This document shows positions 10,307 to 28,058 of a DNA stretch of 64,000 nt, in pieces. The stretch lies in contig JAYVZS010000054.1 of the NCBI GenBank assembly GCA_043783155.1, positions 85,667 to 149,666 of the forward strand. The letters run 5' to 3'. This DNA is from Bacteroidota bacterium (GTDB lineage: Bacteria > Bacteroidota > Bacteroidia > AKYH767-A > 2013-40CM-41-45). Under the pieces are notes generated by a model. It had not been told where the DNA came from. It saw only the letters and a program-made list of their open reading frames with translations, and ran no database searches. The first letter of the stretch is position 1. Each line of letters opens with the position of its first letter. Made by a program: the position numbers and the translations under genes.

Positions 10307-12247
10307 TCACTTTATCAAAGCAGCTTTTTCAAGAAATGACTTCGCCTTTACGCTATCGCCCGTTAATTGGTAACTGAGACCGATAAATTTATAGTTCTCA
10401 CTGTCCGTTGAATCAAGTTCAAGACACTTGCTGAAATTTTCAATGGCTTTTGCATATTGATGCAGGTAAACATAACAACGTCCTATATTTTTATACACGG
10501 CAGTATCTTGCGGACTCAGGTCAATTGCTTTTTGAAAAACAGGAATAGCTTGCGAATAATTTTCCAAACCCAATAACGCACATCCTTTGTTATTGAAAAC
10601 GTCCGCTTCAGTTTGGTTAGATTTTGTATACAAGTCAAGTTGAGTAATTGATTTTTCAAACTCTCCGTTTTTTAAATAGAGAAAGCCCAAACTTTTATGT
10701 GCATCCTGGTAGGAGGGGAGAATTGTTAATGCAGTTTCCAGTTCATGAATGGATTGAAGCAAAATTTCTTTTTTTGCTTCGCTGTTTTTCTCCAGGTAAT
10801 ATGCATCGTGCAGCAAAGCGACTCCGAGATTGTAATGCATCCTCGCACTGTTCTCCACAATTTTTACATCGTGACTATATAAAGAGAGGTTGCTTTTCCA
10901 GTCCTGACTTCGCGCAAAAGTTCGGATAGAATAAACTCCTGTCAGTAAAAAAGCTATAAGTAAAACGGATGAATTCAGAGAATAGAATTGTTTTATCCCG
11001 TTGTATTCCTGGTTGATGTTTTTCGTTTTTGAGTATTTTAGAAGCAAGAAAGAGATGGCTATGCAAAAGCCCAGCGACGGCATGTACATAAATCTTTCGG
11101 CCATCGTAGATCCGATTAAAAGAAATAAATTGGAAACAGGCGAAAGCGTAATCAAATAGAACAGGATGGCAAACGATAAGATATTTTTTTTTCTGAGAGT
11201 GAGAATAGCATAAAATCCAAGCGCGCTGTAAATGAACAGGGCGAAAATAGCAGCAGGACTGCTGAATGTCTGGATCGCTATTTGTGAAAAAGAATAGTCG
11301 GATGACAAAGGGTGAGGTACAATTAAAAGAAGAAGGTATTTTAATAAAATATAAAATGCTGTTGCCACCCGGCTGAAATAATTTTCTGCACCCACCATCG
11401 TGTTATCGAGTAATGGAACCTGGTAGACCACAGGAATCGATTCGAGAATTTTGTAACGAATGAATAAATAGATAGCCGCTGCCCCGGCTAACACCAATGT
11501 TATACCTCCGATTTTTTTATAGTTAGTGTCTTTGAAAAAGAAGAGTAGCAGGGGAATGACGACAAGGAATGTTATTCCGGTTTCTTTGGATGTGAGCGAA
11601 AAGAACAAAAATAATCCTGCCAATACGAGATAGAGGATCGAGTTTTTTGAATAATATTTTAAGACAAACAAGGATGAAACAATGCCGAAAAGAAAACATA
11701 GGATTTCATCGCGGCTTTTAATGTTATCGACAACTTCGGTGTGAATGGGATGAGCTGCGTATAGAAGTGCGCAGACAAAAGCGAAAATTAATTTTTGATT
11801 TTTAAATAGGTTATAAAGTAAAATAAACAGGAGGGAACAGGTAATCGCATACAGCAATACATTCATGAAATGGCTGACGTGCGGATTGCCGGGAAAGAAA
11901 TTCCATTCGATGGCAAACATGATGAGGGAAGCTGGCCTGTACTGCGGCACTCGTATATTTCCGGAATATCCAAACCAGTAGTCTGATTTGAGCAGGTCAG
12001 CGATTCCTGAGAATCCCCTGTTGACTATTTTATTTTGGGCAACAGAGGCAGTATCATCAAGTGTATAGTCAAAGGAAATACTTTGAAAATAGAGAGCGAA
12101 AGCAAACAGGCCAATTACGATCGCCAGTGTGATCTTTAGTTTTCCGGGAGCAATTGCAACGCTTGAAATATTTACTTTTCCAACATGTTTCAATTGCAGG
12201 TCTCCCTTCGCAAATGGTTTTTGTTGTTTCTTTTTCTGTTCTGACAT
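10307..12247 (-). CDS. TMTC-like GT-C membrane glycosyltransferase with C-terminal TPR repeats
   Basis: LDD loop, YRP, HPIHTEVV..I.SR, SKETG, AERFMYMPSLGF, followed by TPR-like repeats. Confidence 0.8.
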   Translation of the reverse strand: MSEQKKKQQKPFAKGDLQLKHVGKVNISSVAIAPGKLKITLAIVIGLFAFALYFQSISFDYTLDDTASVAQNKIVNRGFSGIADLLKSDYWFGYSGNIRVPQYRPASLIMFAIEWNFFPGNPHVSHFMNVLLYAITCSLLFILLYNLFKNQKLIFAFVCALLYAAHPIHTEVVDNIKSRDEILCFLFGIVSSLFVLKYYSKNSILYLVLAGLFLFFSLTSKETGITFLVVIPLLLFFFKDTNYKKIGGITLVLAGAAAIYLFIRYKILESIPVVYQVPLLDNTMVGAENYFSRVATAFYILLKYLLLLIVPHPLSSDYSFSQIAIQTFSSPAAIFALFIYSALGFYAILTLRKKNILSFAILFYLITLSPVSNLFLLIGSTMAERFMYMPSLGFCIAISFLLLKYSKTKNINQEYNGIKQFYSLNSSVLLIAFLLTGVYSIRTFARSQDWKSNLSLYSHDVKIVENSARMHYNLGVALLHDAYYLEKNSEAKKEILLQSIHELETALTILPSYQDAHKSLGFLYLKNGEFEKSITQLDLYTKSNQTEADVFNNKGCALLGLENYSQAIPVFQKAIDLSPQDTAVYKNIGRCYVYLHQYAKAIENFSKCLELDSTDSENYKFIGLSYQLTGDSVKAKSFLEKAALIK

Positions 12248-12481
12248 ATTTTGATACGAACCGATACTCCCATCAATTTGACGACTAAGTAATATAAAAG
12301 AATGAGACCATATTCAGGAATGGAGCAGATTTATTTAACAGCTTTGCTCATCTAGTTTTCCAGGGTGAAAAAAAACATGCTGTTAAAAACGTTGGTTTGA
12401 GGGTGGCTTGTAGCGGTTTTTAAGAGTATGTTTTTTGTGGGTGGGCTTTTGTTTTCTTCCGTCTTTATGATGAAGAAATTC

Positions 12482-13054
12482 TTATCCGGCAAAAAATATT
12501 CTCACAACTGTCCAATACAATGCAATGCAACCGATGACGCTTGATAGCGGAAATACAATTCTTTCTTTATACCAAATTTTTTTGCTAAACCATTTACTTA
12601 TTAAAAAGTATGCTAAAAGAATGATGGTAATTTGTCCGAACTCAACACCAAAGTTGAAGGAAAGCAATGCGCTTAAAAAATGAGTGGACGGTATTCCAAT
12701 TTCTTTTAGAGCAGAAGCAAAGCCCATTCCGTGTATTAAGCCGAAAAGAAAAATGATTACTAAACGATACGTGTTTATTTTATCGTGAACAATGTTTTCA
12801 ATGGAAGTAAATAGAATAGATACTGCAATGAGAGGTTCTATTATTTGTGATGACGGTATGAAGTATTCCGCTGCGGTTAGCCCTAACGATAAGCTGTGTG
12901 CAACTGTGAATACAGAACATTGAATGATTACTGATTTTACATCAGAGTTAAGAAAAAAAATACTTAAAATAAAAAGAATGTGGTCAAATCCCAATGGTAT
13001 TACGTGCGTAAATCCTAATTGCAGATATTGCTTTATGATTTCAAATAAGCTCAT
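12482..13054 (-). CDS. HupE/UreJ family membrane protein (putative Ni/Co/metal transporter)
   Basis: GFTHVIPLGFDHILF, FTVAHSLSL, FGLIHGMGFA, FNFGVEFGQ. Confidence 0.88.
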   Translation of the reverse strand: MSLFEIIKQYLQLGFTHVIPLGFDHILFILSIFFLNSDVKSVIIQCSVFTVAHSLSLGLTAAEYFIPSSQIIEPLIAVSILFTSIENIVHDKINTYRLVIIFLFGLIHGMGFASALKEIGIPSTHFLSALLSFNFGVEFGQITIILLAYFLISKWFSKKIWYKERIVFPLSSVIGCIALYWTVVRIFFAG

Positions 13055-13064
13055 TGAAAAATAT

Positions 13065-14246
13065 TTACTCTTTTAAAAGTTTGATTACAGAATTTGTTTT
13101 GTCAAATACTTTTAAAAAGTAAATTCCATTCGTGAGAAAGAAAAAGTTTTGTTGTTCAATATTTGTTCCGGAATAAATTATTTGTCCGACACAATTTGTG
13201 AGTTCAAATATTTCATCGCCATCTTTATTTTTTAAACTAATGGTTGAAGCAAATGGATTCGGATAAATTATCGTACCCGATATTTTAATTTCGCTTACTC
13301 CGGTAGTAGTTAGATTTCCACTTACACAAATTAAATTGTGTTTGAGTGTTTTAAAATCATACGTTGTAATTCCAAATTGTGTATCCAAATACCATGCTTT
13401 GGTTGTTTGATTCGGTAAGGTTGTAGATGACCAGTATTTGTTTGCGCTCATTACACCAAAGAAATTTGTGTTCAATGATGGACTGATCATCGTCTCATCA
13501 GTGATGGATTGCAACTCTTTAATGTTGGGCAAACGCCAGTTTCGTATGCCTGTTAGTGAAAGTGTATCAGCGTATGTGAGCGATTGTTCCCATGTCAGTG
13601 TATCTGCATAAGGAATTTGCTGCCAAATTAAATTCGTGAGATTATCTGTAATTGTTCCGTCACCATTGTTTGTAAAATGATTTGGAATTACCGATGGAGT
13701 TGTAATGTCTCTCACCACTCTTACATGAAATCTTTTTATTCCGCCTGCACTAATGGTTTCTGTTTTAGGATGATTGCCGATCCCTCCTCCCGCATTTGTA
13801 ACCCAAACTTTGTTGCTGTCGTTTGCCTGTCGGTCGCTTGTCCACCAATATTCGGCAAGTGTTGCTGTAAATACTGAAACATCTAAAGCAGGATTGCTGT
13901 GTTGATGATTGAGAATACTAAATGATTCGTGTGCGTTAGGCAATCGCCAATCTGTGTAACCTCCAAGCGTAAGTGTATCACAATATAAGATTGCATTTTC
14001 AATTGTCATTTCTCCTCCGTCAGTTTGTTGCCACATCAATCCAGTGATGGTGTCGGTTACTGTTCCGTTTCCATTCAGCATAAAAAATGGAGCATTGATT
14101 GTATAGTCATTGTCTTCTCCAAATGTTGTTGTGTAACTTGTTGTTTCACCTGTGTCGGGTAATCGCAACATTGTTTTGTTGGTGTTTTGTGCAAAGGTTA
14201 TTATGGCAATCAGGCAAAAGTGAGCAACGAGAAGTATTATTTTCAT
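13065..14246 (-). CDS. Double DUF1566 (Lcl-C)-domain protein with T9SS type A CTD
   Basis: Signal peptide ...TFA|Q; two copies of GTVTD..TGLMWQQ...WRLPN..E; C-terminal YPNPF...GIYFLKV. Confidence 0.85.
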   Translation of the reverse strand: MKIILLVAHFCLIAIITFAQNTNKTMLRLPDTGETTSYTTTFGEDNDYTINAPFFMLNGNGTVTDTITGLMWQQTDGGEMTIENAILYCDTLTLGGYTDWRLPNAHESFSILNHQHSNPALDVSVFTATLAEYWWTSDRQANDSNKVWVTNAGGGIGNHPKTETISAGGIKRFHVRVVRDITTPSVIPNHFTNNGDGTITDNLTNLIWQQIPYADTLTWEQSLTYADTLSLTGIRNWRLPNIKELQSITDETMISPSLNTNFFGVMSANKYWSSTTLPNQTTKAWYLDTQFGITTYDFKTLKHNLICVSGNLTTTGVSEIKISGTIIYPNPFASTISLKNKDGDEIFELTNCVGQIIYSGTNIEQQNFFFLTNGIYFLKVFDKTNSVIKLLKE

Positions 14247-15479
14247 TTATTGAATAATTAATTTTTGATTAAATTGATAATCGCCTACCGTGATTTTAAC
14301 GACATAAACTCCGCAAGGAATATTATCCAGGAAGACTTTTCCTGAATAGTTAGCGGTCTCAAAAATTTTCTCTCCGGAAGAATTAAAAATGCTGATATTT
14401 ATTATTTGGTTATTTTTAATTGTGCTGTCAAAAGTAATTTGAAATTCTTTTTTTGCAGGGTTGGGGAAAATGTGAATTGCTTTATTCATGTTTCCATTTT
14501 GCATTATACCAGTGATGGAAGAAACAGTATGCCGCACAATAACTTCATTATCTAAAATAAGATTGGTGCTCCAAATAAATTGCGCATCATCGGAAGGGTC
14601 GTCAAAAATGTTTGTGAAATTGGTGTAGGCAGGTTTGTTGTTTACGCCAACAGTTGCGTTAGAATAAATTGTTGCAGTTGGAAATATTGAATCATTAAAA
14701 GATGCGTCCATCCAATTTGATGGTCTGCTCCAATGCAAACCGTAATAACTTGTTCCATTGTTTGAATCTTGTGTGCTGCAATTATTTGAAAGACGCTGTG
14801 AACCATTTTCAGCCGGACAAGTTAAATCAATGATTGGGGACGTATAAAAAGTTTGCGCTTTCCAATCACTTCCTGTTGTTGCGATAATATTGTTTAACGA
14901 ATCTTTAAAAACCGCCACCATTCCTCCATCTCCCATGTGATATAGAAAACCATTATTGTTTTCGCAACCAACTCCCAAGTGTTCTTCCCAATCAACTAAC
15001 AGCATTGCAATCGTAAAAGGTCTGTTAACCCTGAAGCGGATAATGTTTGAATTGAATTGCGTGTAAGGAACATTGTCTTTGCCGACAGCAATTCCATTGA
15101 TGTACATTTCAAAATAATTGTCGGCAAAAATGAAAGCGGTAATTAATTCCCCGTTTGCGTCAATGTTAATAATATCAGAACCATTTAATGCAGCCAATGC
15201 TAAAGCAGATGTTGCATACGTTGCGCCCGTGCAAGGATTGTAAAGGTTGGATGCAAACGGAAAAGAGGTGTTTGTAAAATTAACGACAGCAGGCACCGTC
15301 CAAACGGTAGCATCAGTAGCGGTAATAGAACCGATGTCGGTGATTCTTCCATTGGTGCACGAATAAAGATTAGCAGATGTAGTTATTGCTAATCCTTGAG
15401 TGACGGAAGCAGTTCCCATATATTGAGCGTTCGCAAAAAAAGGGAAGTAGAATAAGAATAAATAAATTGATTGTTTCAT
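14247..15479 (-). CDS. Secreted protein of unknown function (lectin/beta-sandwich-like) with T9SS type A CTD
   Basis: Signal peptide ...ANA|Q; ADNYFEMYING, TGSDWKA, W.DASFNDS; C-terminal IFPNPA...GVYVVKI...QKLIIQ. Confidence 0.8.
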   Translation of the reverse strand: MKQSIYLFLFYFPFFANAQYMGTASVTQGLAITTSANLYSCTNGRITDIGSITATDATVWTVPAVVNFTNTSFPFASNLYNPCTGATYATSALALAALNGSDIINIDANGELITAFIFADNYFEMYINGIAVGKDNVPYTQFNSNIIRFRVNRPFTIAMLLVDWEEHLGVGCENNNGFLYHMGDGGMVAVFKDSLNNIIATTGSDWKAQTFYTSPIIDLTCPAENGSQRLSNNCSTQDSNNGTSYYGLHWSRPSNWMDASFNDSIFPTATIYSNATVGVNNKPAYTNFTNIFDDPSDDAQFIWSTNLILDNEVIVRHTVSSITGIMQNGNMNKAIHIFPNPAKKEFQITFDSTIKNNQIINISIFNSSGEKIFETANYSGKVFLDNIPCGVYVVKITVGDYQFNQKLIIQ

Positions 15480-15510
15480 TAATTTTTACTTAATTGTTTT
15501 TATTTATTCG

Positions 15511-17130
15511 TTATTGAACAACTAACTTTTTAGTCAATTGATTTTTTGGAAACTGAATTTTCACAACATAAACGCCCTTTGCTAAATTTTTAATTGCAGT
15601 GGTTTGCTGATAATGTTGCGTCTTATAAATCAATTCACCTTTCAAATTATAAATAGAAATTTCCTGAACATCTTTTTCCTGAACAGCATTACTTAATCGC
15701 AAAGAAAAACTTTCATGAGTTGGATTCGGATAAATCATCACATCATTATTTGCAGCAACAATTTCATTTACCGATGTTGGAACAACACAGGGAACAAAAC
15801 CATTGTAAGTGGAAGTAGTAGTACCCGTTTGAGTGTAAAAATTAAAAACATATTGACCGCCAGTTGTCCAATTGTAAACCATTGAATCAGTGTTGCCGCT
15901 TAATGTATATGTCAACGTGTAACCGTTGTTAGTTGCATTGGGTTGGCAATTTGTAATCACTGCACCGGGCAATGGATTTTGTCCCGGACGAATAGGATTT
16001 GCATGTGGCTGCGGAATAATTTGATGCGTTGTGTCTTCAGTTACAACTCCAACCATGTAGCCAATCATGTAAGGTGCGGCAGCCACTCCGTGATAATGAT
16101 AAACTCCGTTTGTGCCGAAGTGCCCGTTGTTTGTATCAAGCGGAGCCATTGCAGAACCATCCGGTTCTAAATTTCCATACACTGCAAAACCATCTAATGC
16201 ATAAGCGATGGGCAAAGTTGGTGAAGTGAAATTATACAAACTCATGGGTGCGATGTGATAATGATAATCATCTGCACGTCCGCAATGTCCGCCCCAATTA
16301 TCTAATTGCCCTGTGAGAAATGCATCAGCACCTGTATTTGTATAAGGATTAAAAATAGCAATACCATTTACTGCAACTGCAATTGCACCTCTTGTAAAAT
16401 GCGCAGGACTTACGGGAACAGGCGTCGCTGCAAGAACCGGACTTAATGGAATGCTCCAGGCATTGTTGCCGACATAACATTGCGGAATGGGAACTTGCTG
16501 TTGCCAGTTTGTAATACCGGTCATCATTGGATGAGTAGCAGGTATGCCGTTTGATTCTACATAAAAATAATTAGCATCCCAGTGGGTATAAACATTGGGT
16601 TTGAATGGTGTGAAAGCTGAATCAACAAAAAGAGGATCTGTTATGCTTTGCATGGATTGAAAAACTTTAGTTGTGAAACTGAACAGTGTCATAACTACAC
16701 CAACTGATAAAATAGGAATTAAATATTTTAGTTTCGCTCTGTCTGCAACTTTATAAAAATAGAAGCCAAGTACGATGAGAATTAGTACCACAATTAAAAT
16801 TTTTAAATAAATTGGAGATTGCCTTTCAACTTGCTTTGAATTTTGAACAAACGGTTTGTAATTTAATTCTTTTACCCATTCCGCTTTTTTTAGTGCAAAC
16901 GCCTGGTCTTCTTTAGAAAAATAGGCCATTGGATAATTTACAATTTTATTATTCGCATCTTCTATAAAAATATTTTCATTTTTATACATGTAAAAAGAAC
17001 CGTCAACAGATTTGTTTTCCCTTTCAACAATCCAATGCCTTAAAATTACTTTATCATAATTAATGGTATGTGCAGAAAGGAAGTTGCTCAAGAGAAAAAG
17101 GAGTATGACTAAAATGTTTTTGATTTTCAT
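15511..17130 (-). CDS. YHYH-domain protein with N-terminal SHD1-like domain, two hydrophobic segments and T9SS type A CTD
   Basis: GGHCGRADDYHYH and NGHFGTNGVYHYH, AIAVAVNGIAIF, AYALDGFAVYG; C-terminal IYPNPT...GVYVVKI...KKLVVQ. Confidence 0.88.
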   Translation of the reverse strand: MKIKNILVILLFLLSNFLSAHTINYDKVILRHWIVERENKSVDGSFYMYKNENIFIEDANNKIVNYPMAYFSKEDQAFALKKAEWVKELNYKPFVQNSKQVERQSPIYLKILIVVLILIVLGFYFYKVADRAKLKYLIPILSVGVVMTLFSFTTKVFQSMQSITDPLFVDSAFTPFKPNVYTHWDANYFYVESNGIPATHPMMTGITNWQQQVPIPQCYVGNNAWSIPLSPVLAATPVPVSPAHFTRGAIAVAVNGIAIFNPYTNTGADAFLTGQLDNWGGHCGRADDYHYHIAPMSLYNFTSPTLPIAYALDGFAVYGNLEPDGSAMAPLDTNNGHFGTNGVYHYHGVAAAPYMIGYMVGVVTEDTTHQIIPQPHANPIRPGQNPLPGAVITNCQPNATNNGYTLTYTLSGNTDSMVYNWTTGGQYVFNFYTQTGTTTSTYNGFVPCVVPTSVNEIVAANNDVMIYPNPTHESFSLRLSNAVQEKDVQEISIYNLKGELIYKTQHYQQTTAIKNLAKGVYVVKIQFPKNQLTKKLVVQ

Positions 17131-17146
17131 TTTTTATTAGGTTTTG

Positions 17147-17782
17147 TTATTTTCTAAAGTGTATCTGGCAGCCCAACGATTTTGATTCTTTTATTTCAAC
17201 TTCTTTTCCTTTCAGCAAAGCGTCAACAGCATTGGCGACATATTGATTTTTCACTTTCTCCGGCTCGGCACCATTGTCATCAATGGCTCCGTTGTATTTA
17301 ATTATGTATTCTCCTTTTTCTTTCCACACGACAAAGGCATGTGGGGTTTTTTGCGCCCCGAAATTTTTTGCCGCTGTTTGTGAGCCATCAAATAAATAAG
17401 GGAAGTTAAATTTCTCCTGCTTTGCTTTCGCAATCATTTTAGAGTAAGTATCCTCTTCATACGCAACTGTATCTGTTGAGCTGATTGCAATTAAAGGCAC
17501 GCCTGATGATTTGTACTTCGTGTTCAACTTGCTCATTCTATCCGGATACAATTTTGCAAACGGGCAGTGATTACAAGTGAAAACAATAATGAATCCTTTT
17601 GCATTTTTATAATCAGACAATGAAATGGTTTTTCCGTCAATATTTTTTAATCTGAAATCATTAATGGAGTTACCAATAATTGATTTTGTTTCATAACGGA
17701 AACTTTGGAATATAAAAATAACTAAGATTAGCGCAGCTGTAGTTGCGAATACAGAACAAGTTTTGATTATTTTATTTTTCAT
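17147..17782 (-). CDS. Exported thioredoxin-fold redoxin (AhpC/TSA-like)
   Basis: N-terminal anchor; FTCNHCPF, FPYLFD, GAQKTP, YNGAIDDN, SLGCQI. Confidence 0.88.
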   Translation of the reverse strand: MKNKIIKTCSVFATTAALILVIFIFQSFRYETKSIIGNSINDFRLKNIDGKTISLSDYKNAKGFIIVFTCNHCPFAKLYPDRMSKLNTKYKSSGVPLIAISSTDTVAYEEDTYSKMIAKAKQEKFNFPYLFDGSQTAAKNFGAQKTPHAFVVWKEKGEYIIKYNGAIDDNGAEPEKVKNQYVANAVDALLKGKEVEIKESKSLGCQIHFRK

Positions 17783-19431
17783 TCTTTAATAATTTTTTCA
17801 GTGACAGTGATTTTGTTTTTAGTGGTTGTGATCTGTAAAAAATAGATTCCATTTGATAAGTATGAAAAATCTTGTGTTTCGATTTGCTGACCACTATAAA
17901 TAATTTGCCCTAAGCAATTCTTTAATTCAAATAGTTTATCCTCATTTTTTGATTGGAAATTAATATGTGTTTTAAAAGGATTAGGATAGGCTTGCGAAAT
18001 TATATCAGAAACATTATTAGGTTCATTCAATCCTGTTACCATTGTACAATTGTATGGCAATGGATTCAATTCAATTGGATTTCCTGGTGTCAATGTTTGT
18101 CCGATGAAACCATTGTAATGGGTAGGATAAAAAACACATCTGAATGTTTCATTCGCGTGAGTCGTGGTGCCTTGAGAAATAGGACCTGTGCTATCAACGG
18201 GATTTTTATAATCCCATACTATATTACTTAAAGAATCTATTTCAAAGAAATGTCCTTTTGTAGCTTCGCAAATTAAAGTGTTCCCGTTTATGAGCCTTTG
18301 AGCACCACCCATTACAGGTGTGTAGAAACTTGTCGGCACAGCAGCCATATAAGTCCAATCTGTAATAATAGGACCATATGGCTGACCGGCAGCTAAAGTG
18401 TAATCACCAAAGGCATCAACGGGTTGCGAAATAATATCAACGGAAGCAGCATTGCCACCCGGTCTGTTAACACCATTGTTAAAAATCATAATTTTATTTT
18501 CACCCGGATATGTTTGAGGAATCCATGTAGGATTATGTTGTTGAAATAATTTCCGGTCTGCAACAGTACCTCTGTTATATGCCTGCGGATTTCCCCACCG
18601 GTATAAAAAGTCACCTCCTATATTATGATTTCCTCCGCTGTGGGTAGCTGCTTGCGCAGTAGTAGTGCTATGGTCAATTATATATATTTCACTTAAATTA
18701 TGAGAACTAAATAGTACCTGGTCAAGAGTTGGATTGTAGGTAACCGAATTCAAATGTATCCAGTCAACCTGTGTGGCGGTGTTAGTACCATTAAAATTAA
18801 TATTAAGAAGTTCAGGATGGTCTGTAACCACACCGTAATTTGTTTTTGTTGAATCATAATCCTGAACAAGATGGTCAAAAAGATTCCACTGCCACACAAT
18901 GTTTCCACCTGTAGCGCCTACCGGTTGTATCTCTTCTAATTTTGCACTCCACAAAGAATTACCAACAATTGTTGGATTTCTACCAGCTGCTATTGCTTGT
19001 GCAGCAGTGTAACTTGTCCATATTGCTACAATAATATTTCCATTTGGCAACGGACAAATGTCATGGTTTTGAATTTCAGTAGCGGTTGAAATAGTATAAG
19101 ACCATGTTAGATTATTATTCCAGTCATATTTTTCAATCATTCCACCTGCAGAACCCTGACCGTTGAAGGCTGCATTCTGAATCTTTTCACTTCGTAATAA
19201 ACTTCCATCAGGAAGTAAATAAACTGACATGCCGGGATTGTGGGGACTTGCCCACTGATGAATTTTTTTGCCACATTTATCAATAAGATAAGTGGTATCC
19301 GAGCGAATAGGAGCAAACAAAACATAGCCATCTAACGAACCTGCGTTTTGTGTAAACAATCCTACTGTTTGCTGTGCTTTTGCAGATAATACAACTACAA
19401 ATAATAGATATGCAATTATTATTTTTTTCAT
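17779..19431 (-). CDS. Aryl-sulfate sulfotransferase family beta-propeller protein with T9SS type A CTD
   Basis: NHDICPLPNGN, IVWQWNLFDH, DWIHLNSV, QQHNPTW, GGAQRLINGNTLI; C-terminal YPNPF...GIYFLQI. Confidence 0.82.
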   Translation of the reverse strand: MKKIIIAYLLFVVVLSAKAQQTVGLFTQNAGSLDGYVLFAPIRSDTTYLIDKCGKKIHQWASPHNPGMSVYLLPDGSLLRSEKIQNAAFNGQGSAGGMIEKYDWNNNLTWSYTISTATEIQNHDICPLPNGNIIVAIWTSYTAAQAIAAGRNPTIVGNSLWSAKLEEIQPVGATGGNIVWQWNLFDHLVQDYDSTKTNYGVVTDHPELLNINFNGTNTATQVDWIHLNSVTYNPTLDQVLFSSHNLSEIYIIDHSTTTAQAATHSGGNHNIGGDFLYRWGNPQAYNRGTVADRKLFQQHNPTWIPQTYPGENKIMIFNNGVNRPGGNAASVDIISQPVDAFGDYTLAAGQPYGPIITDWTYMAAVPTSFYTPVMGGAQRLINGNTLICEATKGHFFEIDSLSNIVWDYKNPVDSTGPISQGTTTHANETFRCVFYPTHYNGFIGQTLTPGNPIELNPLPYNCTMVTGLNEPNNVSDIISQAYPNPFKTHINFQSKNEDKLFELKNCLGQIIYSGQQIETQDFSYLSNGIYFLQITTTKNKITVTEKIIKE

Positions 19432-19437
19432 TTTTAT

Positions 19438-21162
19438 TTATTGTTTAATAAATTTTTTAGTTACAGTGATTTTTGTTTTTTCATCAGTCAATTGCAATAC
19501 ATAAATTCCTTTTGCCAACGTGCTGATGTCAATTCCATTTTGCAATTGCGGATGCGGAAGCATGTAAATAGTTCTTCCTAATATATTGTTTATTTTTATA
19601 TAATATGCCTGCATGGATGGGTCAGCAAACGACACGTATAATTTATCGTTAGCAGGATTTGGATAAAGAGAAAAATCTTTTGGCGCTTGTGTTGGCTCGT
19701 TAATACCGGTTGTATTTCCTGTAACAACAAATTGTCCCATCATGCCTTCGTCTTCGTGAAGTGAAATATGGCAGTGATACATAAACGGATGCAGACTGTC
19801 AGCATAATCTTCAAACTTTGCAATAAACTTTACAATGGATGGGTTACCGGGACTCAATCGGGCAGGAACAAAAACAACATCTTTCCAACCAGCCTGTGCA
19901 GGCACGGGAGCAACTCCGTTAACAGAAACAATATTGAATTGCACATCATGAATATGAAACGGGTGACCGAAAACAGATGAACTTGTAATTTGCCAAATCT
20001 CTGTATTACCAATAGGAACCTGGTACTCGTTGTAATTAATATTAAAAAGTTTATGATTGATGATGAAAGCATTTGGTCCCAGAATATTCGGAACACCTGT
20101 GCTATCGCTTATTGTTAGTTGCCTTGTAATAGTGGCATTCGCAGTGTTTAATAAAACATTAGTAGTTAAAGTTGTTGGAATTGTTGTGATTGGAGAACCT
20201 GTTTGCGCTGCAACATTTATATGCAGCATAGTAAAATCTAAATGACCAAGATAATTTCCAAATGGTCCTCCTGCAAAACTTTCGCCACCTGCAATATTAG
20301 GTGTAAGCGAAGCATTGTATGCTTTTAAATCAACTGCTGTACCGGATTGTCCGTTGAAGTCAACCAGAATTTCAATTCGTTCACCTGCATGTAATAAATA
20401 TCTGTTTACAGAAACAGGTGCATTGAGCAAACCACCGTCAGAACAAATCACGGAGAAATTTCTGTTATCGCTGAAGCCAATATTAAAGGAGCGTTCAATT
20501 GCTACATCTAAAATTCTAAAGCGAACTATTTGTGCAGGCACTGAATATTGCGGACGCAATGTTCCGTTCACCATCATGCTGTCACCATAAGGTACTTTTA
20601 CAAATTGATTTGATGCGTCAATATCTCTGTCAGTTAACACCAATGGAATATCATCTACTCCATACGTGCGTGGCAATGCCAATGCGGATTCTACAGGGTC
20701 TCTTACAATTATCAACCCGCCTAAACCTTTGATAATTTGGTCTTCAGTCATCGTGTGCAGATGCGGATGATACCAATAAGTGGCAGCATTGTTTGTTACT
20801 TTCCAGTAAGGTTGCCAGATGGTGCCGGGAGGAATTATCTGATGCGGACCGCCATCCATAACAGCGGGGAGATGAAAACCATGCCAGTGAATAGTTGTTG
20901 AATCATTCAAATAATTATGCACGTTCATGTGGACAGTATCACCTTTATTAAAAAACAAAGTGGGTCCCCAAAATTTTCCGTTAATACCTGCTGTGATAGT
21001 TTGATTGCCGGGAAGTATTTGTGAAAACGTGTCTTTAAGATTTAGGTTGAATGTGGTTCCCGATAGTGTGTCAGGTATCCAAAGTGTATTGTATGATTGC
21101 GCTGATGCATTTATTTTAAATAGAATTATTAATGCAAATAGAAGTGTGATTTTTTTTATCAT
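19438..21162 (-). CDS. Three-domain multicopper oxidase (CueO/bilirubin-oxidase-like) with T9SS type A CTD, copy B
   Basis: HWHG, WYHPH, HPFHIH, HCHISLHEDEGMM; Sec-type signal ...ASA|Q; LYPNPA...GIYVLQL...KKFIKQ. Confidence 0.93.
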   Translation of the reverse strand: MIKKITLLFALIILFKINASAQSYNTLWIPDTLSGTTFNLNLKDTFSQILPGNQTITAGINGKFWGPTLFFNKGDTVHMNVHNYLNDSTTIHWHGFHLPAVMDGGPHQIIPPGTIWQPYWKVTNNAATYWYHPHLHTMTEDQIIKGLGGLIIVRDPVESALALPRTYGVDDIPLVLTDRDIDASNQFVKVPYGDSMMVNGTLRPQYSVPAQIVRFRILDVAIERSFNIGFSDNRNFSVICSDGGLLNAPVSVNRYLLHAGERIEILVDFNGQSGTAVDLKAYNASLTPNIAGGESFAGGPFGNYLGHLDFTMLHINVAAQTGSPITTIPTTLTTNVLLNTANATITRQLTISDSTGVPNILGPNAFIINHKLFNINYNEYQVPIGNTEIWQITSSSVFGHPFHIHDVQFNIVSVNGVAPVPAQAGWKDVVFVPARLSPGNPSIVKFIAKFEDYADSLHPFMYHCHISLHEDEGMMGQFVVTGNTTGINEPTQAPKDFSLYPNPANDKLYVSFADPSMQAYYIKINNILGRTIYMLPHPQLQNGIDISTLAKGIYVLQLTDEKTKITVTKKFIKQ

Positions 21163-21193
21163 ACTGATTGTTGAAATATTTGAGATGTAGAAT

Positions 21194-21222
21194 TTAGATG
21201 CTCTTTGTTTATAAAACCTGCG
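21194..21222 (-). promoter_or_regulatory. Putative ECF-type promoter CGCAGG-N16-CATCTAA
   Basis: Same motif, same spacer and same 31-nt distance to ATG as 23018-23046. Confidence 0.55.
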
Positions 21223-21264
21223 GTTGGTTTAACGTGGCTTAAAAATTCTTTTCTCATCGTTAAA

Positions 21265-22986
21265 TTATTCCTTTATAAATTTTTTAGTTACAGTGACTTT
21301 TGTTTTTTCATCAGTCAATTGCAATACATAAATTCCTTTTGCCAACGTGCTGATGTCAATTCCATTTTGCAATTGCGGACGCGGGAGCATGTAAATAGTT
21401 TTGCCTGCTGTGTTATTAATTTTTATGTAATACGCCTGCATAGTAGGGTCATCAAAAGAGATGTATAATTTATTGTTTGCAGGATTTGGATAAAGCGAAA
21501 AATCTTTTGGCGATTGTGTTGGCTCGTTAATGCCTGTTGTATTTCCTGTAACAACAAATTGTCCCATCATGCCGCCATCTTCATGATTTGAAAAATGACA
21601 GTGATACATAAACGGGTGAATGGAATCAGAATAATCTTCAAACTTAGCTACAAACGAAACGGATTCTCCTCTCGGTAAATACACATCATCTTTCCAACCT
21701 GATTCGTAATTTCCGACTGCAGATGCATTGCCATTCCTTGCAACAATTTTAAATTGCACATCATGAATGTGAAAAGCGTGACTGAAAATATTGCTATTTA
21801 CAATGGTCCATTCTTCAATTGTATTTACGTTTACTGTTTTATTAATTGTGTTTAAAACAAAAGCGGCATTATCAAAAGCAAATTCTGCAAGACCTATTCC
21901 GGTACCCGGAGTAACATTTACTGTGCGGTTTACTGTTGCATTTGCAGCCGTCCAATAAATATTATTTGCAAGTGTTGCAGGCATTGTTATAACAGGAGTT
22001 GCCGTTGTTGCGGCAACATTGAGATGCAAAACGGTAAAGTCATGATTGTTTAATAAACTTCCGTTTATTCCGCTTTGCTGTGGCTCTGCACCGGGGAAAC
22101 CAAATACTTGTCCAGTATTAAATGCTTTTAAATCTAAACTTGAACCAACAGCATCAGCACTAAAGTCAACTAATATTTCAATGCGTTCTCCAACCATCAG
22201 TTTCACTCTCGTAACAGCAACAGGTGCGTTTAATAATCCACCGTCATTGGCAATAATGTAAAAAGTTCTGTTGTCGCTGAATCCTAAATTATATCCTCTT
22301 TCAATTTCAGCATTCAAAATTCGCAAGCGCACATATTGTTTGGGCAAACTTACCTGCGCGTTCGGAGTGCCGTTGGTTAACATGTAATCTCCGTACTCAC
22401 TTATATTTACACCATTTGTTACGGTAAATTGATTAGTTGCATCATAACCTCTGCTTGTTAACACGATTGGAAAATCATCAACACCATAAGTTCGCGGCAA
22501 TGTCAATGCAGCTTCTATTGGGTCCCGCACAATAATAAATCCGCCAAGTCCTTTGGTAAGATGCTCCATTGTCATGTTATGCAAATGCGGATGATACCAA
22601 TAAGTAGCAGCGTTGTTGGTTACTTTCCAGTAAGGTTGCCAAATTGTGCCGGGCGGAATTATCTGATGAGGTCCGCCATCCATCACAGCAGGCAGGTGCA
22701 TTCCGTGCCAGTGAACAGTTGTTGAATCATTCAAATTATTTTGCACATTCATGTGTACAGTATCACCCTGATTAAAAATTAAAGTGGGTCCCCAAAACCG
22801 ACTGCCGTTAATTCCTGCTGTTATTGTTTGATTGCCGGGTCGCAATTGTGCGAACGTGTCATTAAGTGTCAAATTAAAATTTGTTCCTGATATAGTGTCG
22901 GGAATCCAAAGCGAATTGTATTGAGCTGATAAATTTTTTGTAAAAAGAAAAATTATCAGGCAGAGTACGGTGTGTTTTTTGTTCAT
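21265..22986 (-). CDS. Three-domain multicopper oxidase with T9SS type A CTD, copy A
   Basis: HWHG, WYHPH, HAFHIH, HCHFSNHEDGGMM; Sec-type signal ...LSA|Q; CTD nearly identical to copy B. Confidence 0.93.
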   Translation of the reverse strand: MNKKHTVLCLIIFLFTKNLSAQYNSLWIPDTISGTNFNLTLNDTFAQLRPGNQTITAGINGSRFWGPTLIFNQGDTVHMNVQNNLNDSTTVHWHGMHLPAVMDGGPHQIIPPGTIWQPYWKVTNNAATYWYHPHLHNMTMEHLTKGLGGFIIVRDPIEAALTLPRTYGVDDFPIVLTSRGYDATNQFTVTNGVNISEYGDYMLTNGTPNAQVSLPKQYVRLRILNAEIERGYNLGFSDNRTFYIIANDGGLLNAPVAVTRVKLMVGERIEILVDFSADAVGSSLDLKAFNTGQVFGFPGAEPQQSGINGSLLNNHDFTVLHLNVAATTATPVITMPATLANNIYWTAANATVNRTVNVTPGTGIGLAEFAFDNAAFVLNTINKTVNVNTIEEWTIVNSNIFSHAFHIHDVQFKIVARNGNASAVGNYESGWKDDVYLPRGESVSFVAKFEDYSDSIHPFMYHCHFSNHEDGGMMGQFVVTGNTTGINEPTQSPKDFSLYPNPANNKLYISFDDPTMQAYYIKINNTAGKTIYMLPRPQLQNGIDISTLAKGIYVLQLTDEKTKVTVTKKFIKE

Positions 22987-23017
22987 GATGAATGTTGAGA
23001 TATGTATGTTTTAGCAG

Positions 23018-23046
23018 TTAGATGCGCTTTGATTAAATAACTTGCG
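23018..23046 (-). promoter_or_regulatory. Putative ECF-type promoter CGCAAG-N16-CATCTAA
   Basis: Repeat of the motif at 21194-21222, 31 nt upstream of the MCO ATG. Confidence 0.55.
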
Positions 23047-23069
23047 AATAGTTTAAACGGTTTACAAAT

Positions 23070-23186
23070 TTACTTGAAGAATATTAGTGCGGTTGGGCAA
23101 AATAAAATGTGAGGATGTGCATTTACATTGTTTGCTGATAGTGATAGAGAAATAATTATAACTAAACCTGGAATTTTATTTTTCAT
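23070..23186 (-). pseudogene. 38-aa ORF: signal peptide plus short tail (gene relic or micropeptide)
   Basis: MKNKIPGLVIIISLSLSANNVNA|HPHILFCPTALIFFK*; starts 47 nt downstream of a putative ECF promoter. Confidence 0.45.
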
Positions 23187-23233
23187 TTTATTTGTTTACC
23201 GCGTTTTTAGAATTGATGAATCACATTTATTAA

Positions 23234-23260
23234 GACGATACTATTTTTTATTTTCGGCAC
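23234..23260 (-). promoter_or_regulatory. Putative ECF promoter GTGCCG-N16-TCGTC
   Basis: Identical boxes and spacing to 24097-24123. Confidence 0.6.
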
Positions 23261-23270
23261 TATCATTAAA

Positions 23271-23768
23271 TTATTTTTTTTTCGGTTGATTATCTGGTCT
23301 GAAATAATCTCTGATTTCTAAAATTAAATTTTGAAACTTTTCTAACTGTTCGGGAGTGCAAATTGCTTTTAGTTGTTGTGCCTGTTCAATTCGCAATAGT
23401 TCCATTTGATACTCATTGTCGGCAACGCTTTTCGCTAAAGTTTTTACTTCTTCTTCGTTTGTAGTTTTATTAAACATTGTTTCATTCATGGAATCTCTTT
23501 CGTTACGAATGATTGTTGCCAATGATTTTTCTTTTTCAAAAATATCGGAACGAAGATTTTTTATTTGTTCAACTTGCCTATCAGTTAAGTTTAATTCCTT
23601 CTGCAAAACAGTTGACACATCACGATATTCATTCTGGTGTGGAAACAATTCGGGTTCATGGTGATGCGAAAAATCTTTCCATAAAAAAATACCGATTGAA
23701 AATAAATTCAATGCAGTAAGCAGAATTACCAAGCGAACTAATAATTTCTTTTGTGCAAAAATATCCAT
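23271..23768 (-). CDS. Periplasmic heavy-metal sensor / Spy-CpxP-ZraP-CnrX-like protein
   Basis: TM anchor, HHHEPELFPH, ELNLTDRQVEQI, helical body, ICTPEQ motif. Confidence 0.82.
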   Translation of the reverse strand: MDIFAQKKLLVRLVILLTALNLFSIGIFLWKDFSHHHEPELFPHQNEYRDVSTVLQKELNLTDRQVEQIKNLRSDIFEKEKSLATIIRNERDSMNETMFNKTTNEEEVKTLAKSVADNEYQMELLRIEQAQQLKAICTPEQLEKFQNLILEIRDYFRPDNQPKKK

Positions 23769-23771
23769 GCC

Positions 23772-24080
23772 TTAATTGTTTATTGAACTTGAATTACTCA
23801 ATAGTTCTTTTGAAATCACTTGTAATTCTTTCTCCCGACTTGGGGTTTGCTGTGATTCATTCATCGTTGTTTTAAAAATAAAACCAATGTTTGCAATAAC
23901 AACAAGTAACATTAATAAAGCATACTTTGACGAAGAAAATCTTGCTATTGAATTTGGTTTTGCGACAGATAATTTTTGCATCAATGAATCATTCCATTCT
24001 GATGACGGCTGAATGTTTTCCATTGATTCAAACTCCTGAAGTGTTTGAGAAACTCTGTTATTTAATTCCTGCTCTTGCAT
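23772..24080 (-). CDS. Putative single-pass anti-sigma factor
   Basis: 102 aa, PSSEWNDSLMQKL then one TM helix; lies between the ECF sigma and sensor genes. Confidence 0.7.
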   Translation of the reverse strand: MQEQELNNRVSQTLQEFESMENIQPSSEWNDSLMQKLSVAKPNSIARFSSSKYALLMLLVVIANIGFIFKTTMNESQQTPSREKELQVISKELLSNSSSINN

Positions 24081-24096
24081 TGTTGTTATTTAGTTT

Positions 24097-24123
24097 GACG
24101 ATTAATATTTTCTGTTCCGGCAC
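24097..24123 (-). promoter_or_regulatory. Putative ECF promoter GTGCCG-N16-TCGTC
   Basis: Fills the 53-bp gap between sigma stop and anti-sigma start; TCGTC resembles ECF -10 CGT cores; repeated at 23234-23260. Confidence 0.6.
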
Positions 24124-24133
24124 TTTTAGTAAA

Positions 24134-24697
24134 TTATTTTTTGAGGATAGATTCTAATTCTTCGCTTACTTTTTTTTTGGCACGATACACCAATGATTCG
24201 ACGGCAAGTGTCGTCGTATTCATAATCTCGGCAATTTCGGAATTGGTGTAGCCGTCAATTTTGCTCAATGTAAAAGCTACCCGTTGGCTGTCGGGCAAAG
24301 CGTTTAATGCCTGCATCACTTCTTTCATTTTTTCTTTTTCGTGCAATTGTTTGTCGGGCATTGTTCCACCACCAATCCAGTGTGCCACTTCATCCAGATG
24401 CAGTATTTTGCCAAGTGAAGTGATGCGTTTTTTACGATTGCGTTTTTTTATTTCGTCCAAACATTTTGTTACAGCAATTCTGTAAATCCATGTTGAAAGT
24501 TTTGCATCGCCACGAAATGATTTGATGGATTGAAATACCTCAATAAAAACTTCCTGCGAAATGTCTTCCGCATCTTCTTTGTCCAATAAAAAACGGTAGC
24601 AAGTGTTGATTACTCTTTTTCCATAGAGCATCACCAGTTCATTAAATGCAGCTTTATCACCTGCTATTAAATTGCGCAACAAAGCATCATCATCCAT
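24134..24697 (-). CDS. ECF-type RNA polymerase sigma-70 factor
   Basis: GDKAAFNELV, DAEDISQEVF, FRGDAKLSTWIYRIA, LPDSQRVAFTL...EIAEIM...VESLVYRAK. Confidence 0.95.
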   Translation of the reverse strand: MDDDALLRNLIAGDKAAFNELVMLYGKRVINTCYRFLLDKEDAEDISQEVFIEVFQSIKSFRGDAKLSTWIYRIAVTKCLDEIKKRNRKKRITSLGKILHLDEVAHWIGGGTMPDKQLHEKEKMKEVMQALNALPDSQRVAFTLSKIDGYTNSEIAEIMNTTTLAVESLVYRAKKKVSEELESILKK

Positions 24698-26297: not shown

Positions 26298-26344
26298 GGA
26301 AACAGTTGTTGAGCCGATAAAGATAATGGTAAAGAAGGTTCAGG

Positions 26345-27421: not shown

Positions 27422-27478
27422 GTATAGATACGATTGGTAAGTATTTTTTCAGGATTGCAAAAGTAAAAATTAACACAT

Positions 27479-28021
27479 TTAAACCAAACTGATAAGCTCT
27501 TTTAATAACGGAAGTTGCAAATCTTTTTCCGATAATACAGGATTTTTTTCACCCCATTCGATGTTTATTTCAGGATCATCGTAGCGAATTCCCCGCTCAG
27601 AATCTTTGCTGTACAGAGTGGTGCATTTATAAAGAAAGAGGGTGTTGTCTTCCAGCGTCAGAAATCCGTGAGCGAAGCCGGCAGGAATCCAGAGCATCTG
27701 CTGGTTTCTTTCATTCAACTCAATGGAAAAATATTTTCCGAATGTGGAAGATGATTTACGGATGTCAACGCAAACATCGAGCACTCCACCATTCACGACC
27801 CTGATTAGTTTTCCCTGCTCGTAAGGACGAAGCTGAAAATGCAATCCTCTTAATACACCTTTGTTACTGAATGATTGATTGTCCTGCACAAACTCAACAG
27901 GAATTCCGTTTTTAATAAATTCCGCTTTGTTATAGGATTCAAAAAAATATCCGCGATGATCACGAAAAATTTTCGGTTCAATAATGATTAATCCTTCGAA
28001 TGGAGTAGTAATAAAATTCAT
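27479..28021 (-). CDS. rfbC: dTDP-4-dehydrorhamnose 3,5-epimerase
   Basis: DHRGYFFESY, FVQDNQS, GVLRGLHFQ, GFAHGF. Confidence 0.95.
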   Translation of the reverse strand: MNFITTPFEGLIIIEPKIFRDHRGYFFESYNKAEFIKNGIPVEFVQDNQSFSNKGVLRGLHFQLRPYEQGKLIRVVNGGVLDVCVDIRKSSSTFGKYFSIELNERNQQMLWIPAGFAHGFLTLEDNTLFLYKCTTLYSKDSERGIRYDDPEINIEWGEKNPVLSEKDLQLPLLKELISLV

Positions 28022-28058
28022 GTCCGATTGCCTTAAAAAAATCCGGTTGGTATAGTGA

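Follow-up and report, generated by a model that had tools for sequence, protein, structure and literature searches.

A 64-kb stretch of DNA from the 3.3-Mb genome of a sediment Bacteroidota (G000), hereafter the window, carries at 12482-24697 on its minus strand 11 open reading frames (ORFs) that encode an extracytoplasmic function (ECF) sigma factor, a short anti-sigma factor, a membrane-anchored protein of the Spy/CpxP/ZraP family, two multicopper oxidases (MCOs), an arylsulfotransferase (ASST)-family propeller protein, a CxxC redoxin, and proteins of the YHYH, jelly-roll-like, Lcl_C (DUF1566), and HupE_UreJ_2 types. On balance, we read this set as an operon-like accessory cluster, in which a dedicated ECF sigma factor drives the production of metal-dependent surface enzymes secreted by the type IX secretion system (T9SS), together with their helpers. 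It is a real, probably sigma-controlled operon of T9SS cargo, and its gene content, its modularity, its promoter motif, and the C-terminal domains (CTDs) of its cargo can be read directly from sequence comparison. Literature searches, which did not extend to subscription papers and supplements, found no published description of the cluster or of its combinations of families, as the initial annotation of this DNA had supposed.

Gene content and secretion signals

The initial annotation had described 11 co-oriented genes with gaps of 6, −4, 16, 31, 0, and 10 bp among the distal seven, a set of domain assignments, and six T9SS type A CTDs. The ORF listing of the window matches the gene count and the gaps exactly, and Pfam and NCBIfam bear out the domain assignments and the CTDs. 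The six Por_Secre_tail CTDs (E 9.8e-7 to 5.6e-14) lie above the curated cut-offs in Pfam and in NCBIfam (TIGR04183), and in the models of the YHYH protein and the 410-aa protein the CTD fits onto that of NucA (8glk_D), with target-normalised template modelling (TM) scores of 0.87 and 0.83, respectively. GldM, the one T9SS core component searched for, is encoded on contig C141 (TIGR03517, 336.9 bits, over the cut-off). Apart from the long YHYH protein, the five cargo proteins carry an N-terminal signal peptide only, with cleavage sites of the form A|Q. The gaps between the proximal genes are 53 bp (sigma/anti-sigma), 3 bp, 284 bp (LTXXQ/MCO-A), and 102 bp (MCO-A/MCO-B). Since co-orientation continues past both ends of the set, the boundaries of the 11-gene cluster rest on the comparison with a second locus, L019, which is described below, rather than on strand. 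The features are as follows.

24134..24697, minus strand: ECF sigma factor, 187 aa (Pfam Sigma70_r2, r4_2, Sigma70_ECF)
24094..24121, minus strand: promoter-like motif P1 (GCCGGA-N14-TCGTCAAA), between the sigma stop and the anti-sigma start
23772..24080, minus strand: short single-pass anti-sigma factor, 102 aa (no Pfam family; hydrophobic segment at about aa 54-70)
23271..23768, minus strand: membrane-anchored Spy/CpxP/ZraP-family (LTXXQ) protein, candidate periplasmic sensor, 165 aa (Pfam LTXXQ, Metal_resist)
23231..23258, minus strand: promoter-like motif P2 (GCCGAA-N14-TCGTCTTA), 13 nt past the LTXXQ stop, upstream of MCO-A
23070..23186, minus strand: 38 codons left from the 5′ end (signal peptide) of an ancestral MCO gene (N-terminus matches the L019 MCO)
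21265..22986, minus strand: MCO-A, CueO-like three-domain MCO with T9SS CTD, 573 aa (Pfam Cu-oxidase_3/_2, Por_Secre_tail)
19438..21162, minus strand: MCO-B, second CueO-like MCO with T9SS CTD, 574 aa (Pfam)
17779..19431, minus strand: ASST-family beta-propeller protein with T9SS CTD, 550 aa (Pfam Arylsulfotrans, Arylsulfotran_2)
17147..17782, minus strand: membrane-anchored thioredoxin-fold CxxC protein (redoxin), 211 aa (Pfam AhpC-TSA/Redoxin)
15511..17130, minus strand: long-form YHYH protein with T9SS CTD, 539 aa (Pfam YHYH, Por_Secre_tail)
14247..15479, minus strand: family-less jelly-roll-like protein with CTD, 410 aa (Pfam: CTD alone)
13065..14246, minus strand: double Lcl_C (DUF1566) protein with CTD, 393 aa (Pfam Lcl_C, 172 bits, two stretches)
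12482..13054, minus strand: HupE_UreJ_2 membrane protein, candidate metal permease, 190 aa (Pfam, 139.3 bits)

The regulatory trio and a recurrent promoter-like motif

Among solved relatives, the sigma factor matches RpoE/AlgU/SigW-like proteins at E values of 3e-25 to 8e-23, and CnrH (4cxf) more weakly, at 2.9e-13. The LTXXQ protein scores 32.2 bits for Pfam LTXXQ and 29.4 bits for Metal_resist (cut-off 29.2), and a profile of 16 sequences finds Spy as its nearest match in the PDB (E 0.0036), followed by ZraP (E 0.13). In 16 orthologues, L55, E58, R73, N95, E119, E123, Q129, C137, E151, and Y155 are invariant, and M94, M98, and C137 are invariant or nearly so. The anti-sigma factor, aligned from 18 orthologues, keeps an N-terminal FE..I.PS..W and a C-terminal IS.ELL motif.

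A prediction of the complex between two LTXXQ chains and one anti-sigma chain gave an ipSAE of 0.66, vs. 0.00 for the best of three controls, a mark that is attained by 58 of 80 solved complexes and by 2 of 110 mismatched pairs. The three runs had at least 68% of contacts in common, with a partner pLDDT (predicted local distance difference test) of at least 62. In the modelled interface, residues 83-97 of the anti-sigma factor face an LTXXQ surface that includes the invariant L55, E58, R73, N95, E123, Q129, E151, and Y155. The model supports, and does not itself show, docking of the C-terminal tail of the anti-sigma factor on a Spy-like dimer.

A motif, GCCAGA-N14-TCGTCTAA, was spotted upstream of several sigma genes; its −10 element is of the CGTC type, which is typical of ECF promoters. 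The strict form of the motif has 16 matches in 1.28 Mb of fetched loci, whereas the reversed pattern has none and 30 shuffles give 0.3 on average (at most 2), and 11 of the 16 played no part in deriving the motif. Five of these matches lie before a sigma gene, six between sigma and anti-sigma genes, and one after the LTXXQ gene (in L019); two precede cargo genes with no intervening trio, i.e., the YHYH gene in L025 and a divergent phosphoesterase pair in L031, and the last two lie elsewhere. The wider form GCMRRA-N14-TCGTCT has a single match in the window, at 23233-23258 (P2), where 0.05 would be expected. When up to three mismatches are allowed, both window matches fall at cluster positions, with P1 in the gap between the sigma and anti-sigma genes and P2 before MCO-A. 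The strict motif occupies the P1-type position in six other loci and the P2-type position in L019; in other loci, the gene that follows the LTXXQ gene usually begins 10-70 nt downstream. It is the positions of the window motifs that are informative, not their number. The earlier proposal that the cargo is under ECF control gains sequence-level support, short of proof, from this conserved ECF-type motif directly upstream of MCO-A.

Interchangeable modules in related loci

Of 40 related genomes, 6 encode a full-length orthologue of the long YHYH protein (a tally that counts the unpublished G038 among the genomes without one), and none of the three genomes of the same genus does. A scan with one genome per species returned at least 596 relatives, of which the best 80 come, by their record titles, nearly all from freshwater Bacteroidota metagenome-assembled genomes (MAGs). 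All window proteins were mapped onto these best 80 loci, and neighbours were counted around YHYH orthologues of at least 45% identity, in 39 loci with enough flank on the upstream side and in 52 on the downstream side (44 for HupE_UreJ_2).

The conserved core order is long YHYH, [410-aa jelly-roll], Lcl_C, [HupE_UreJ_2], where brackets mark genes that may be missing: the Lcl_C gene lies downstream of the YHYH gene in 44/52 loci, the jelly-roll gene directly after it in 21/52, and the HupE_UreJ_2 gene downstream in 17/44. Upstream of the core, the most frequent partner is a pair of CTD-bearing PhoD/purple-acid-like metallophosphoesterases (20/39). An MCO is found in 11/39 loci, with a redoxin beside it in 10 of those 11, and the two kinds of head never occur together (0/39). 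The remaining upstream counts are 13/39 for the sigma factor, 13/39 for the LTXXQ protein, 3/39 for MbnH, and 1/39 for the ASST-family protein, while 5/39 loci have none of these.

The layout of the window is repeated in L019 only, whose YHYH protein is 87% identical and whose cluster contains a single MCO. In the same genus, G002 has sigma, anti-sigma, a 165-aa ORF, MCO, redoxin, ASST, YHYH, YHYH, MbnP, and MbnH, and G003 has MCO, redoxin, ASST, MbnP, MbnH, and YHYH; the same-genus genomes lack the core. G024 combines the trio, MbnP, MbnH, two YHYH genes, MCO, redoxin, ASST, and the core. Across dozens of species-level genomes, the sub-modules keep their order and orientation and stand a few bases apart. 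By gene order, there are four recurrent modules, namely the sigma/anti-sigma/Spy-like trio, the MCO with its redoxin, the ASST-family gene, and the YHYH-jelly-roll-Lcl_C-HupE core, and the window cluster is best described as one lineage-specific concatenation of these interchangeable modules rather than as a fixed system. The expectation that the gene families would co-occur in other genomes is thus borne out, with a recurrent order, but the 11 genes are not one conserved unit: the whole set is shared with L019 alone, and elsewhere the modules are swapped.

Distant homologues of the long YHYH protein (L089-L098, e.g., that of Arsenicibacter rosenii in L097; 39-43% identity) end at about residue 440 without a CTD, and these CTD-less forms come from Cytophagales and Chitinophagales records. 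In loci of this type, the metallophosphoesterase pair precedes the YHYH gene in 5/8 cases, and no Lcl_C or HupE gene lies downstream. The A. rosenii strain, SM-1, whose YHYH protein is of this CTD-less form and accompanies the phosphoesterase pair, is the one record among the fetched loci that does not bear a MAG label. At L017:14478-16351 (G030), a CTD-bearing sulfatase and a redoxin homologue are convergent to the HupE end of the core.

The secreted oxidases, the ASST-family protein, and the redoxin

Both MCO-A and MCO-B have all four copper motifs (HWHG, HPH, HIH, and HCHxxxHxxxxM) and find CueO-family structures in the PDB (MCO-A, E 4e-75; MCO-B, 6evg CueO, E 6e-81). Aligned to full-length CueO, the proteins match in two separate stretches with the Met-rich insert, which in CueO lies over the T1 site, left out between them; the best match in one piece is to a construct that lacks the insert. 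In addition, the D-M-M-L-H residues of CueO, which like the Met-rich insert have a role in cuprous oxidase activity, align to N-I-F-S-H in MCO-A and to N/S-x-F-x-H across both proteins. Because the insert is skipped and D-M-M-L-H is replaced, the two MCOs appear laccase-like rather than dedicated cuprous oxidases, which counts against the Cu(I) oxidation offered as a possible activity in the initial annotation.

The ASST-family protein scores 66.1 bits for Arylsulfotrans (cut-off 24.2) and 41.4 bits for Arylsulfotran_2 (cut-off 27), and belongs to a CTD-bearing family with more than 7919 homologues. A 27-sequence profile matches E. coli AssT (3elq) weakly, at E 0.007; in that weak alignment, H356 and H436 of AssT fall on H226 and H299, both invariant in the 27 sequences, and R374 falls on H244. 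We take His436 of AssT to be catalytic and His356 to be its partner. Searches of the PDB with phmmer, using the ASST, Lcl_C, and metallophosphoesterase proteins, returned nothing useful.

The redoxin is AhpC/TlpA-like, with weak ResA-like NCBIfam matches, and has an FTCNxCP motif and a third Cys (C205) that are invariant in 16 orthologues. A role as the specific disulfide partner of the ASST-family protein is not favoured: of the 11 loci with an MCO, 10 have the redoxin too, whether or not an ASST gene is there, which weakens the analogy with DsbL and AssT. Where an ASST gene is present, it is found on either side of the redoxin gene, depending on the genome.

The YHYH core and the link to MbnP and MbnH

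The long YHYH protein matches Pfam YHYH (PF14240) at 53.5 bits over profile positions 2-110 of 193. Its AlphaFold2 (AF2) model (pLDDT 87.7) has, in order, a signal peptide, a small beta N-domain, two long hydrophobic helices at about aa 107-151, the YHYH domain, a beta-sandwich, and the CTD, and the hydrophobicity of the helices is conserved across orthologues. Among 73 sequences, H282, H290, H292, D277, and D313 are invariant and H337, H345, and H347 near-invariant; H21, the first residue past the predicted cleavage site (...A|H), is nearly invariant as well. A Foldseek search found no analogue of the YHYH domain, only CTD and generic Ig-like matches. One report predicts the domain to be a Zn-dependent tail hydrolase in jumbo phages (PMC7824862), and another predicts a three-His zinc site that its authors call uncharacterised (bioRxiv 10.64898/2026.10.18.759936); the domain also appears in a diatom Pfam list.

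The AF2 model of the 410-aa protein (pLDDT 84.5) has weak Foldseek matches to N-terminal domains of GH2 enzymes and to a Pleurotus lectin (E 1.5e-4 to 8e-4, TM below 0.2), and an ESM Atlas search gave scores of at most 0.84, which serve as leads only. The Lcl_C (DUF1566) domain is presented in PMC11661182 as a ligand-binding, C-type-lectin-like domain. The HupE_UreJ_2 gene is single-copy in the window's genome, and the family is found in 76 of 301 sampled genomes of the phylum. In other Bacteroidota, the neighbours of HupE_UreJ_2 genes, several of which are zinc enzymes, include an M1-family peptidase of about 790 aa that flanks the gene along with a divergent DUF6702 gene, and a cytidine-deaminase-like protein encoded after it.

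A second locus in the window's genome, contig C16:1-3035 (L101), encodes in succession MbnP (truncated where the contig ends), MbnH, and a canonical YHYH protein with a CTD. In the 301-genome sample, MbnP occurs in 69 genomes, YHYH in 33, and both in 18; in 7 of these 18 (G000, G067, G085, G133, G143, G147, and G313), coordinates compared by hand put YHYH and MbnP less than 3 kb apart. In the loci read, MbnP/MbnH are accompanied by neither methanobactin genes nor a TonB-dependent transporter. According to PMC11951088, MbnP binds copper and MbnH makes its kynurenine ligand. This adjacency is the strongest functional hint for YHYH; however, the commonest partner of the long YHYH protein is the phosphoesterase pair, not a copper enzyme.

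History of the locus

The GC content over the cluster (12000-24000) is 0.35-0.376, vs. about 0.40-0.43 for most of the remaining window, and synteny with the same-genus genomes G001 and G002 stops exactly at the SLT gene that adjoins the cluster. In the 284-bp gap upstream of MCO-A, the remnant translation MKNKIPGLVIIISLSLSANN... matches the N-terminus of the L019 MCO, MSKKNILGLVVIISLSLSANN...; a 38-aa ORF in this gap was considered as a CutF-like leader peptide and rejected, as it is the signal peptide of the remnant MCO. By this comparison, an MCO gene of the L019 type has given way to today's MCO-A and MCO-B, which have about 80 nt of similar sequence upstream of each of them. The end of synteny at the SLT gene, the lower GC, and the rebuilt MCO region together suggest that the cluster sits in a variable region.

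The MCO-A and MCO-B proteins are identical in 373 of 584 aligned columns (64%), whereas the last ~360 nt of their genes (CTD and linker; 19438-19800 and 21265-21630) share 75-98% DNA identity in 60-nt windows, five of six windows being at least 92% identical. This disparity suggests gene conversion between two different MCO lineages. A recent tandem duplication was rejected, since each MCO has 78%-identical orthologues elsewhere (MCO-A in L015 and L029, MCO-B in L014 and L057) and only the ends are homogenised.

On the upstream side, 25356-30616 (minus strand) encodes an SLT transglycosylase, a GT4-family transferase, an RmlC-like epimerase, and a Wzz/tyrosine-kinase-like protein; this capsule/exopolysaccharide block is syntenic with the same-genus genomes as far as the SLT gene. 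On the downstream side, a 646-aa protein with TPR repeats and a TMTC/DUF1736-like segment is encoded on the same strand at 10307-12247, 234 bp past HupE, and has no counterpart in the other loci examined.

Proposed mechanism and the evidence that weighs against it

In the mechanism that we propose, the sigma factor would be retained on the inner membrane through the 102-aa single-pass anti-sigma factor, whose conserved periplasmic tail (...ISKELL...) would rest against the dimeric, membrane-anchored Spy/CpxP/ZraP-like protein. Some signal in the periplasm, which is probably either a metal ion or a state of the envelope, would alter this contact and free the sigma factor, which would then fire two promoters of the GCCAGA-N14-TCGTCTAA type, one before the anti-sigma gene and the other before MCO-A. 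The products would leave the cytoplasm via Sec; in the periplasm, the site at which the CxxC redoxin may act, they would fold and gain their metals and their thiol state, before the six CTD proteins are handed to the T9SS. Most likely, the cluster serves to oxidise or modify phenolic substrates or metals on the cell surface, because the head of the cluster consists of two laccase-like oxidases and an ASST-family propeller. The YHYH/HupE core would supply metal binding and transport. In this scheme, we infer the signal, the substrates, the identity of the metal, and the function of the enzymes as a consortium.

Several observations weigh against this mechanism, or against parts of it. First, the 284-bp and 102-bp gaps leave room for separate transcription units. 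A look-up of sequencing data sets that contain the locus returned six of DNA, from two studies, two of which may be the source sample, and none of RNA. Scans for sigma-70-type promoters (61 vs. 48.7 ± 6) and for terminators (10 vs. 9.9) were at chance level, and the ECF-type motif had to be widened so as to take in the window's own variant. P2 is the sole match of the widened motif in the 3.3-Mb genome, but the reversed-pattern control also gives one, and the two window matches with up to three mismatches are below the 4.06 expected by chance.

Second, a metal signal cannot be read from the sequence of the LTXXQ protein. The His cluster (HHH, aa 35-37) on which its earlier description as a His-cluster sensor relied is not kept, and no His is invariant in the 16 orthologues. 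No CnrX chain is among the PDB matches of its profile at E<=10, and CnrX is not a nearer relative of the protein than the chaperone Spy is.

Third, the core has no obvious single substrate, because the metallophosphoesterase and MCO heads are alternatives. In the long YHYH protein, the two predicted membrane helices between the signal peptide and the CTD are hard to square with T9SS export, and this protein alone among the six CTD proteins would not form the soluble periplasmic intermediate expected of T9SS type A cargo.

Fourth, HupE_UreJ_2 usually stands in quite different contexts. In 16 other Bacteroidota (L110-L125; Pfam was run on one representative per neighbour group), its neighbours are an M1 peptidase and a DUF6702 protein in 7/16 and a deaminase and an S41 peptidase in 4/16, and the window's other cluster proteins have no match in these 16 loci.

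Alternative explanations

The physiological role lies between copper handling, organic-matter processing, and metal loading by the YHYH/HupE core. A dedicated copper system is possible, although we consider it doubtful. Here, the trio would sense periplasmic copper, and the MCOs would detoxify Cu(I), or copper would be captured at the surface by YHYH (elsewhere in the genome by MbnP/MbnH), with a TlpA/Sco-like redoxin and with HupE as the membrane route. The CueO-family matches of both MCOs would fit, as would the invariant FTCNxCP and third Cys of the redoxin, and the genomic associations are suggestive: the MCO-redoxin(-ASST) genes are contiguous with MbnP-MbnH-YHYH in G002, G003, and G024, and YHYH lies close to MbnP on C16 of the window's genome and in the other genomes listed above. 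However, neither MCO has the Met-rich insert or the D-M-M-L-H residues of CueO, the head of 20/39 loci is the metallophosphoesterase pair with no MCO, and there is no CopA/Cus/CopC-type gene among the annotated genes around the cluster. Moreover, relatives of HupE/UreJ are tied to Ni/Co, not Cu, and the LTXXQ protein lacks a conserved His, though M94, M98, and C137 are kept.

A second alternative is that the cluster is an exoenzyme cassette for dissolved or humic organic matter, which we likewise hold to be possible but rather unlikely. Secreted phenol oxidases and an aryl-sulfate transferase would do the work, with phosphoesterases or a sulfatase swapped in or added elsewhere, the lectin-like jelly-roll and Lcl_C proteins would hold the polymer, and metals would be cofactors only. 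The absence of the Met-rich lid from both MCOs is in line with this, as CueO becomes open to organic substrates once the lid is lost. The ASST-family protein retains the His residues that align to H356/H436 of AssT, the alternative heads are secreted phosphoesterases, and the CTD-bearing sulfatase adjoins the cluster in L017. The ligand-binding character of Lcl_C, the weak likeness of the jelly-roll protein to carbohydrate-binding domains, and the mostly freshwater or sediment origin of the carrier MAGs, by record titles, also agree with it. However, an exoenzyme cassette leaves HupE_UreJ_2, the membrane-anchored YHYH protein, the MbnP/MbnH linkage, and the Spy/ZraP-like sensor unexplained, the AssT alignment is weak, and the cluster contains no transporter or catabolic genes for aromatic products.

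Quite unlikely, in our estimate, is the joint proposal that the YHYH protein, anchored in the inner membrane by its hairpin and carrying a conserved His at its mature N-terminus, forms with a HupE_UreJ_2 channel a periplasmic metal-insertion station that loads T9SS metalloenzymes (the MCO or the metallophosphoesterase pair) before export, with the trio sensing the metal or unloaded clients. If this were true, YHYH would be a new class of metallochaperone or metalloenzyme that is also used with MbnP/MbnH.

That there is no functional unit, and that independent T9SS cargo genes were gathered in a variable region while the trio controls itself or something else, is very improbable: the whole 11-gene layout in L019 only, the exact end of G001/G002 synteny at the SLT gene, the lower GC, and the rearranged MCO region with its remnant 5′ end and two MCO lineages would fit, but dozens of species-level genomes have the sub-modules with order and orientation kept, cargo directly follows the trio in 13/39 loci, and one promoter motif stands before both sigma genes and cargo genes.

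Significance

We know of no tested function for several widespread families in this cluster, namely YHYH, Lcl_C/DUF1566 outside Legionella, HupE_UreJ_2, and T9SS-linked ASST propellers. The cluster and its relatives place these families in one regulated context and tie YHYH to copper-protein genes (MbnP/MbnH and MCO). They also offer experimental handles, i.e., a candidate promoter motif, a predicted interface between anti-sigma factor and sensor, and two alternative enzymatic heads. The carriers belong to Bacteroidota that are common in fresh water and sediment, so their enzymes may matter for metal cycling or for the turnover of phenolic, organic phosphorus, or sulfur compounds. The cluster may also show how the metalloenzymes among T9SS cargo get their metals.

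Comparison with known systems

The regulatory genes invite comparison with CnrYXH of Cupriavidus metallidurans. Both have an ECF sigma factor, a short single-pass anti-sigma factor of which about 45-50 aa are cytoplasmic, and a helical protein of the LTXXQ/Metal_resist superfamily that lies in the periplasm and is anchored in the membrane, and in both the C-terminus of the anti-sigma factor is placed on the sensor dimer, by prediction in the window. According to PMC6851896, CnrY docks on the CnrX dimer in the arrangement that we modelled, and the metal ligands of CnrX are His42/His46/Glu63/His119/Met123. We note four differences. First, the gene order in the window is sigma, anti-sigma, sensor, unlike that of cnrYXH. 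Second, the window sigma factor is nearer to RpoE/SigW than to CnrH. Third, the sensor has neither a match to CnrX in the PDB nor conserved His ligands. Fourth, the regulated genes in the window encode T9SS cargo, whereas those of CnrYXH encode a resistance-nodulation-division (RND) efflux pump. The parallel with CnrH/CnrY/CnrX drawn in the initial annotation therefore stands for the short anti-sigma factor and its modelled contact with the LTXXQ dimer, and falls for the sigma group and the sensor match; the trio would work like CnrYXH, yet by sigma group and sensor it lies outside that family.

The window MCOs share the three cupredoxin domains and the four copper motifs with CueO and with laccase-like bacterial MCOs. 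They differ from CueO by the missing Met-rich insert and by a Sec signal peptide that ends in A|Q, and, whereas CueO is purely periplasmic, they carry a T9SS CTD and exist as two diverged copies with homogenised CTDs.

For the ASST-family gene, the comparison system is the AssT-DsbL-DsbI aryl-sulfate sulfotransferase locus of uropathogenic E. coli. Here as there, a propeller of this family stands beside a thiol-disulfide oxidoreductase; in the weak alignment, the His residues placed on H356/H436 are invariant. However, the match to AssT is at E 0.007 only, the redoxin is AhpC/TlpA-like rather than DsbA-like, and the window ASST protein has a T9SS CTD.

The HupE_UreJ_2 protein (139 bits) resembles the HupE/UreJ Ni/Co permeases in its His/Asp-bearing transmembrane motifs (GFxH...GxDH). 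Relatives of HupE/UreJ have been linked to Ni/Co; the window protein differs from the permeases in belonging to the _2 subfamily, of which we know no tested member, and in not lying beside hydrogenase or urease genes.

Finally, MbnP and its di-haem maturase MbnH are encoded outside the window cluster, but in relatives their genes directly adjoin those for MCO-redoxin-ASST and YHYH, and in the genome of the window they adjoin a YHYH(CTD) gene.

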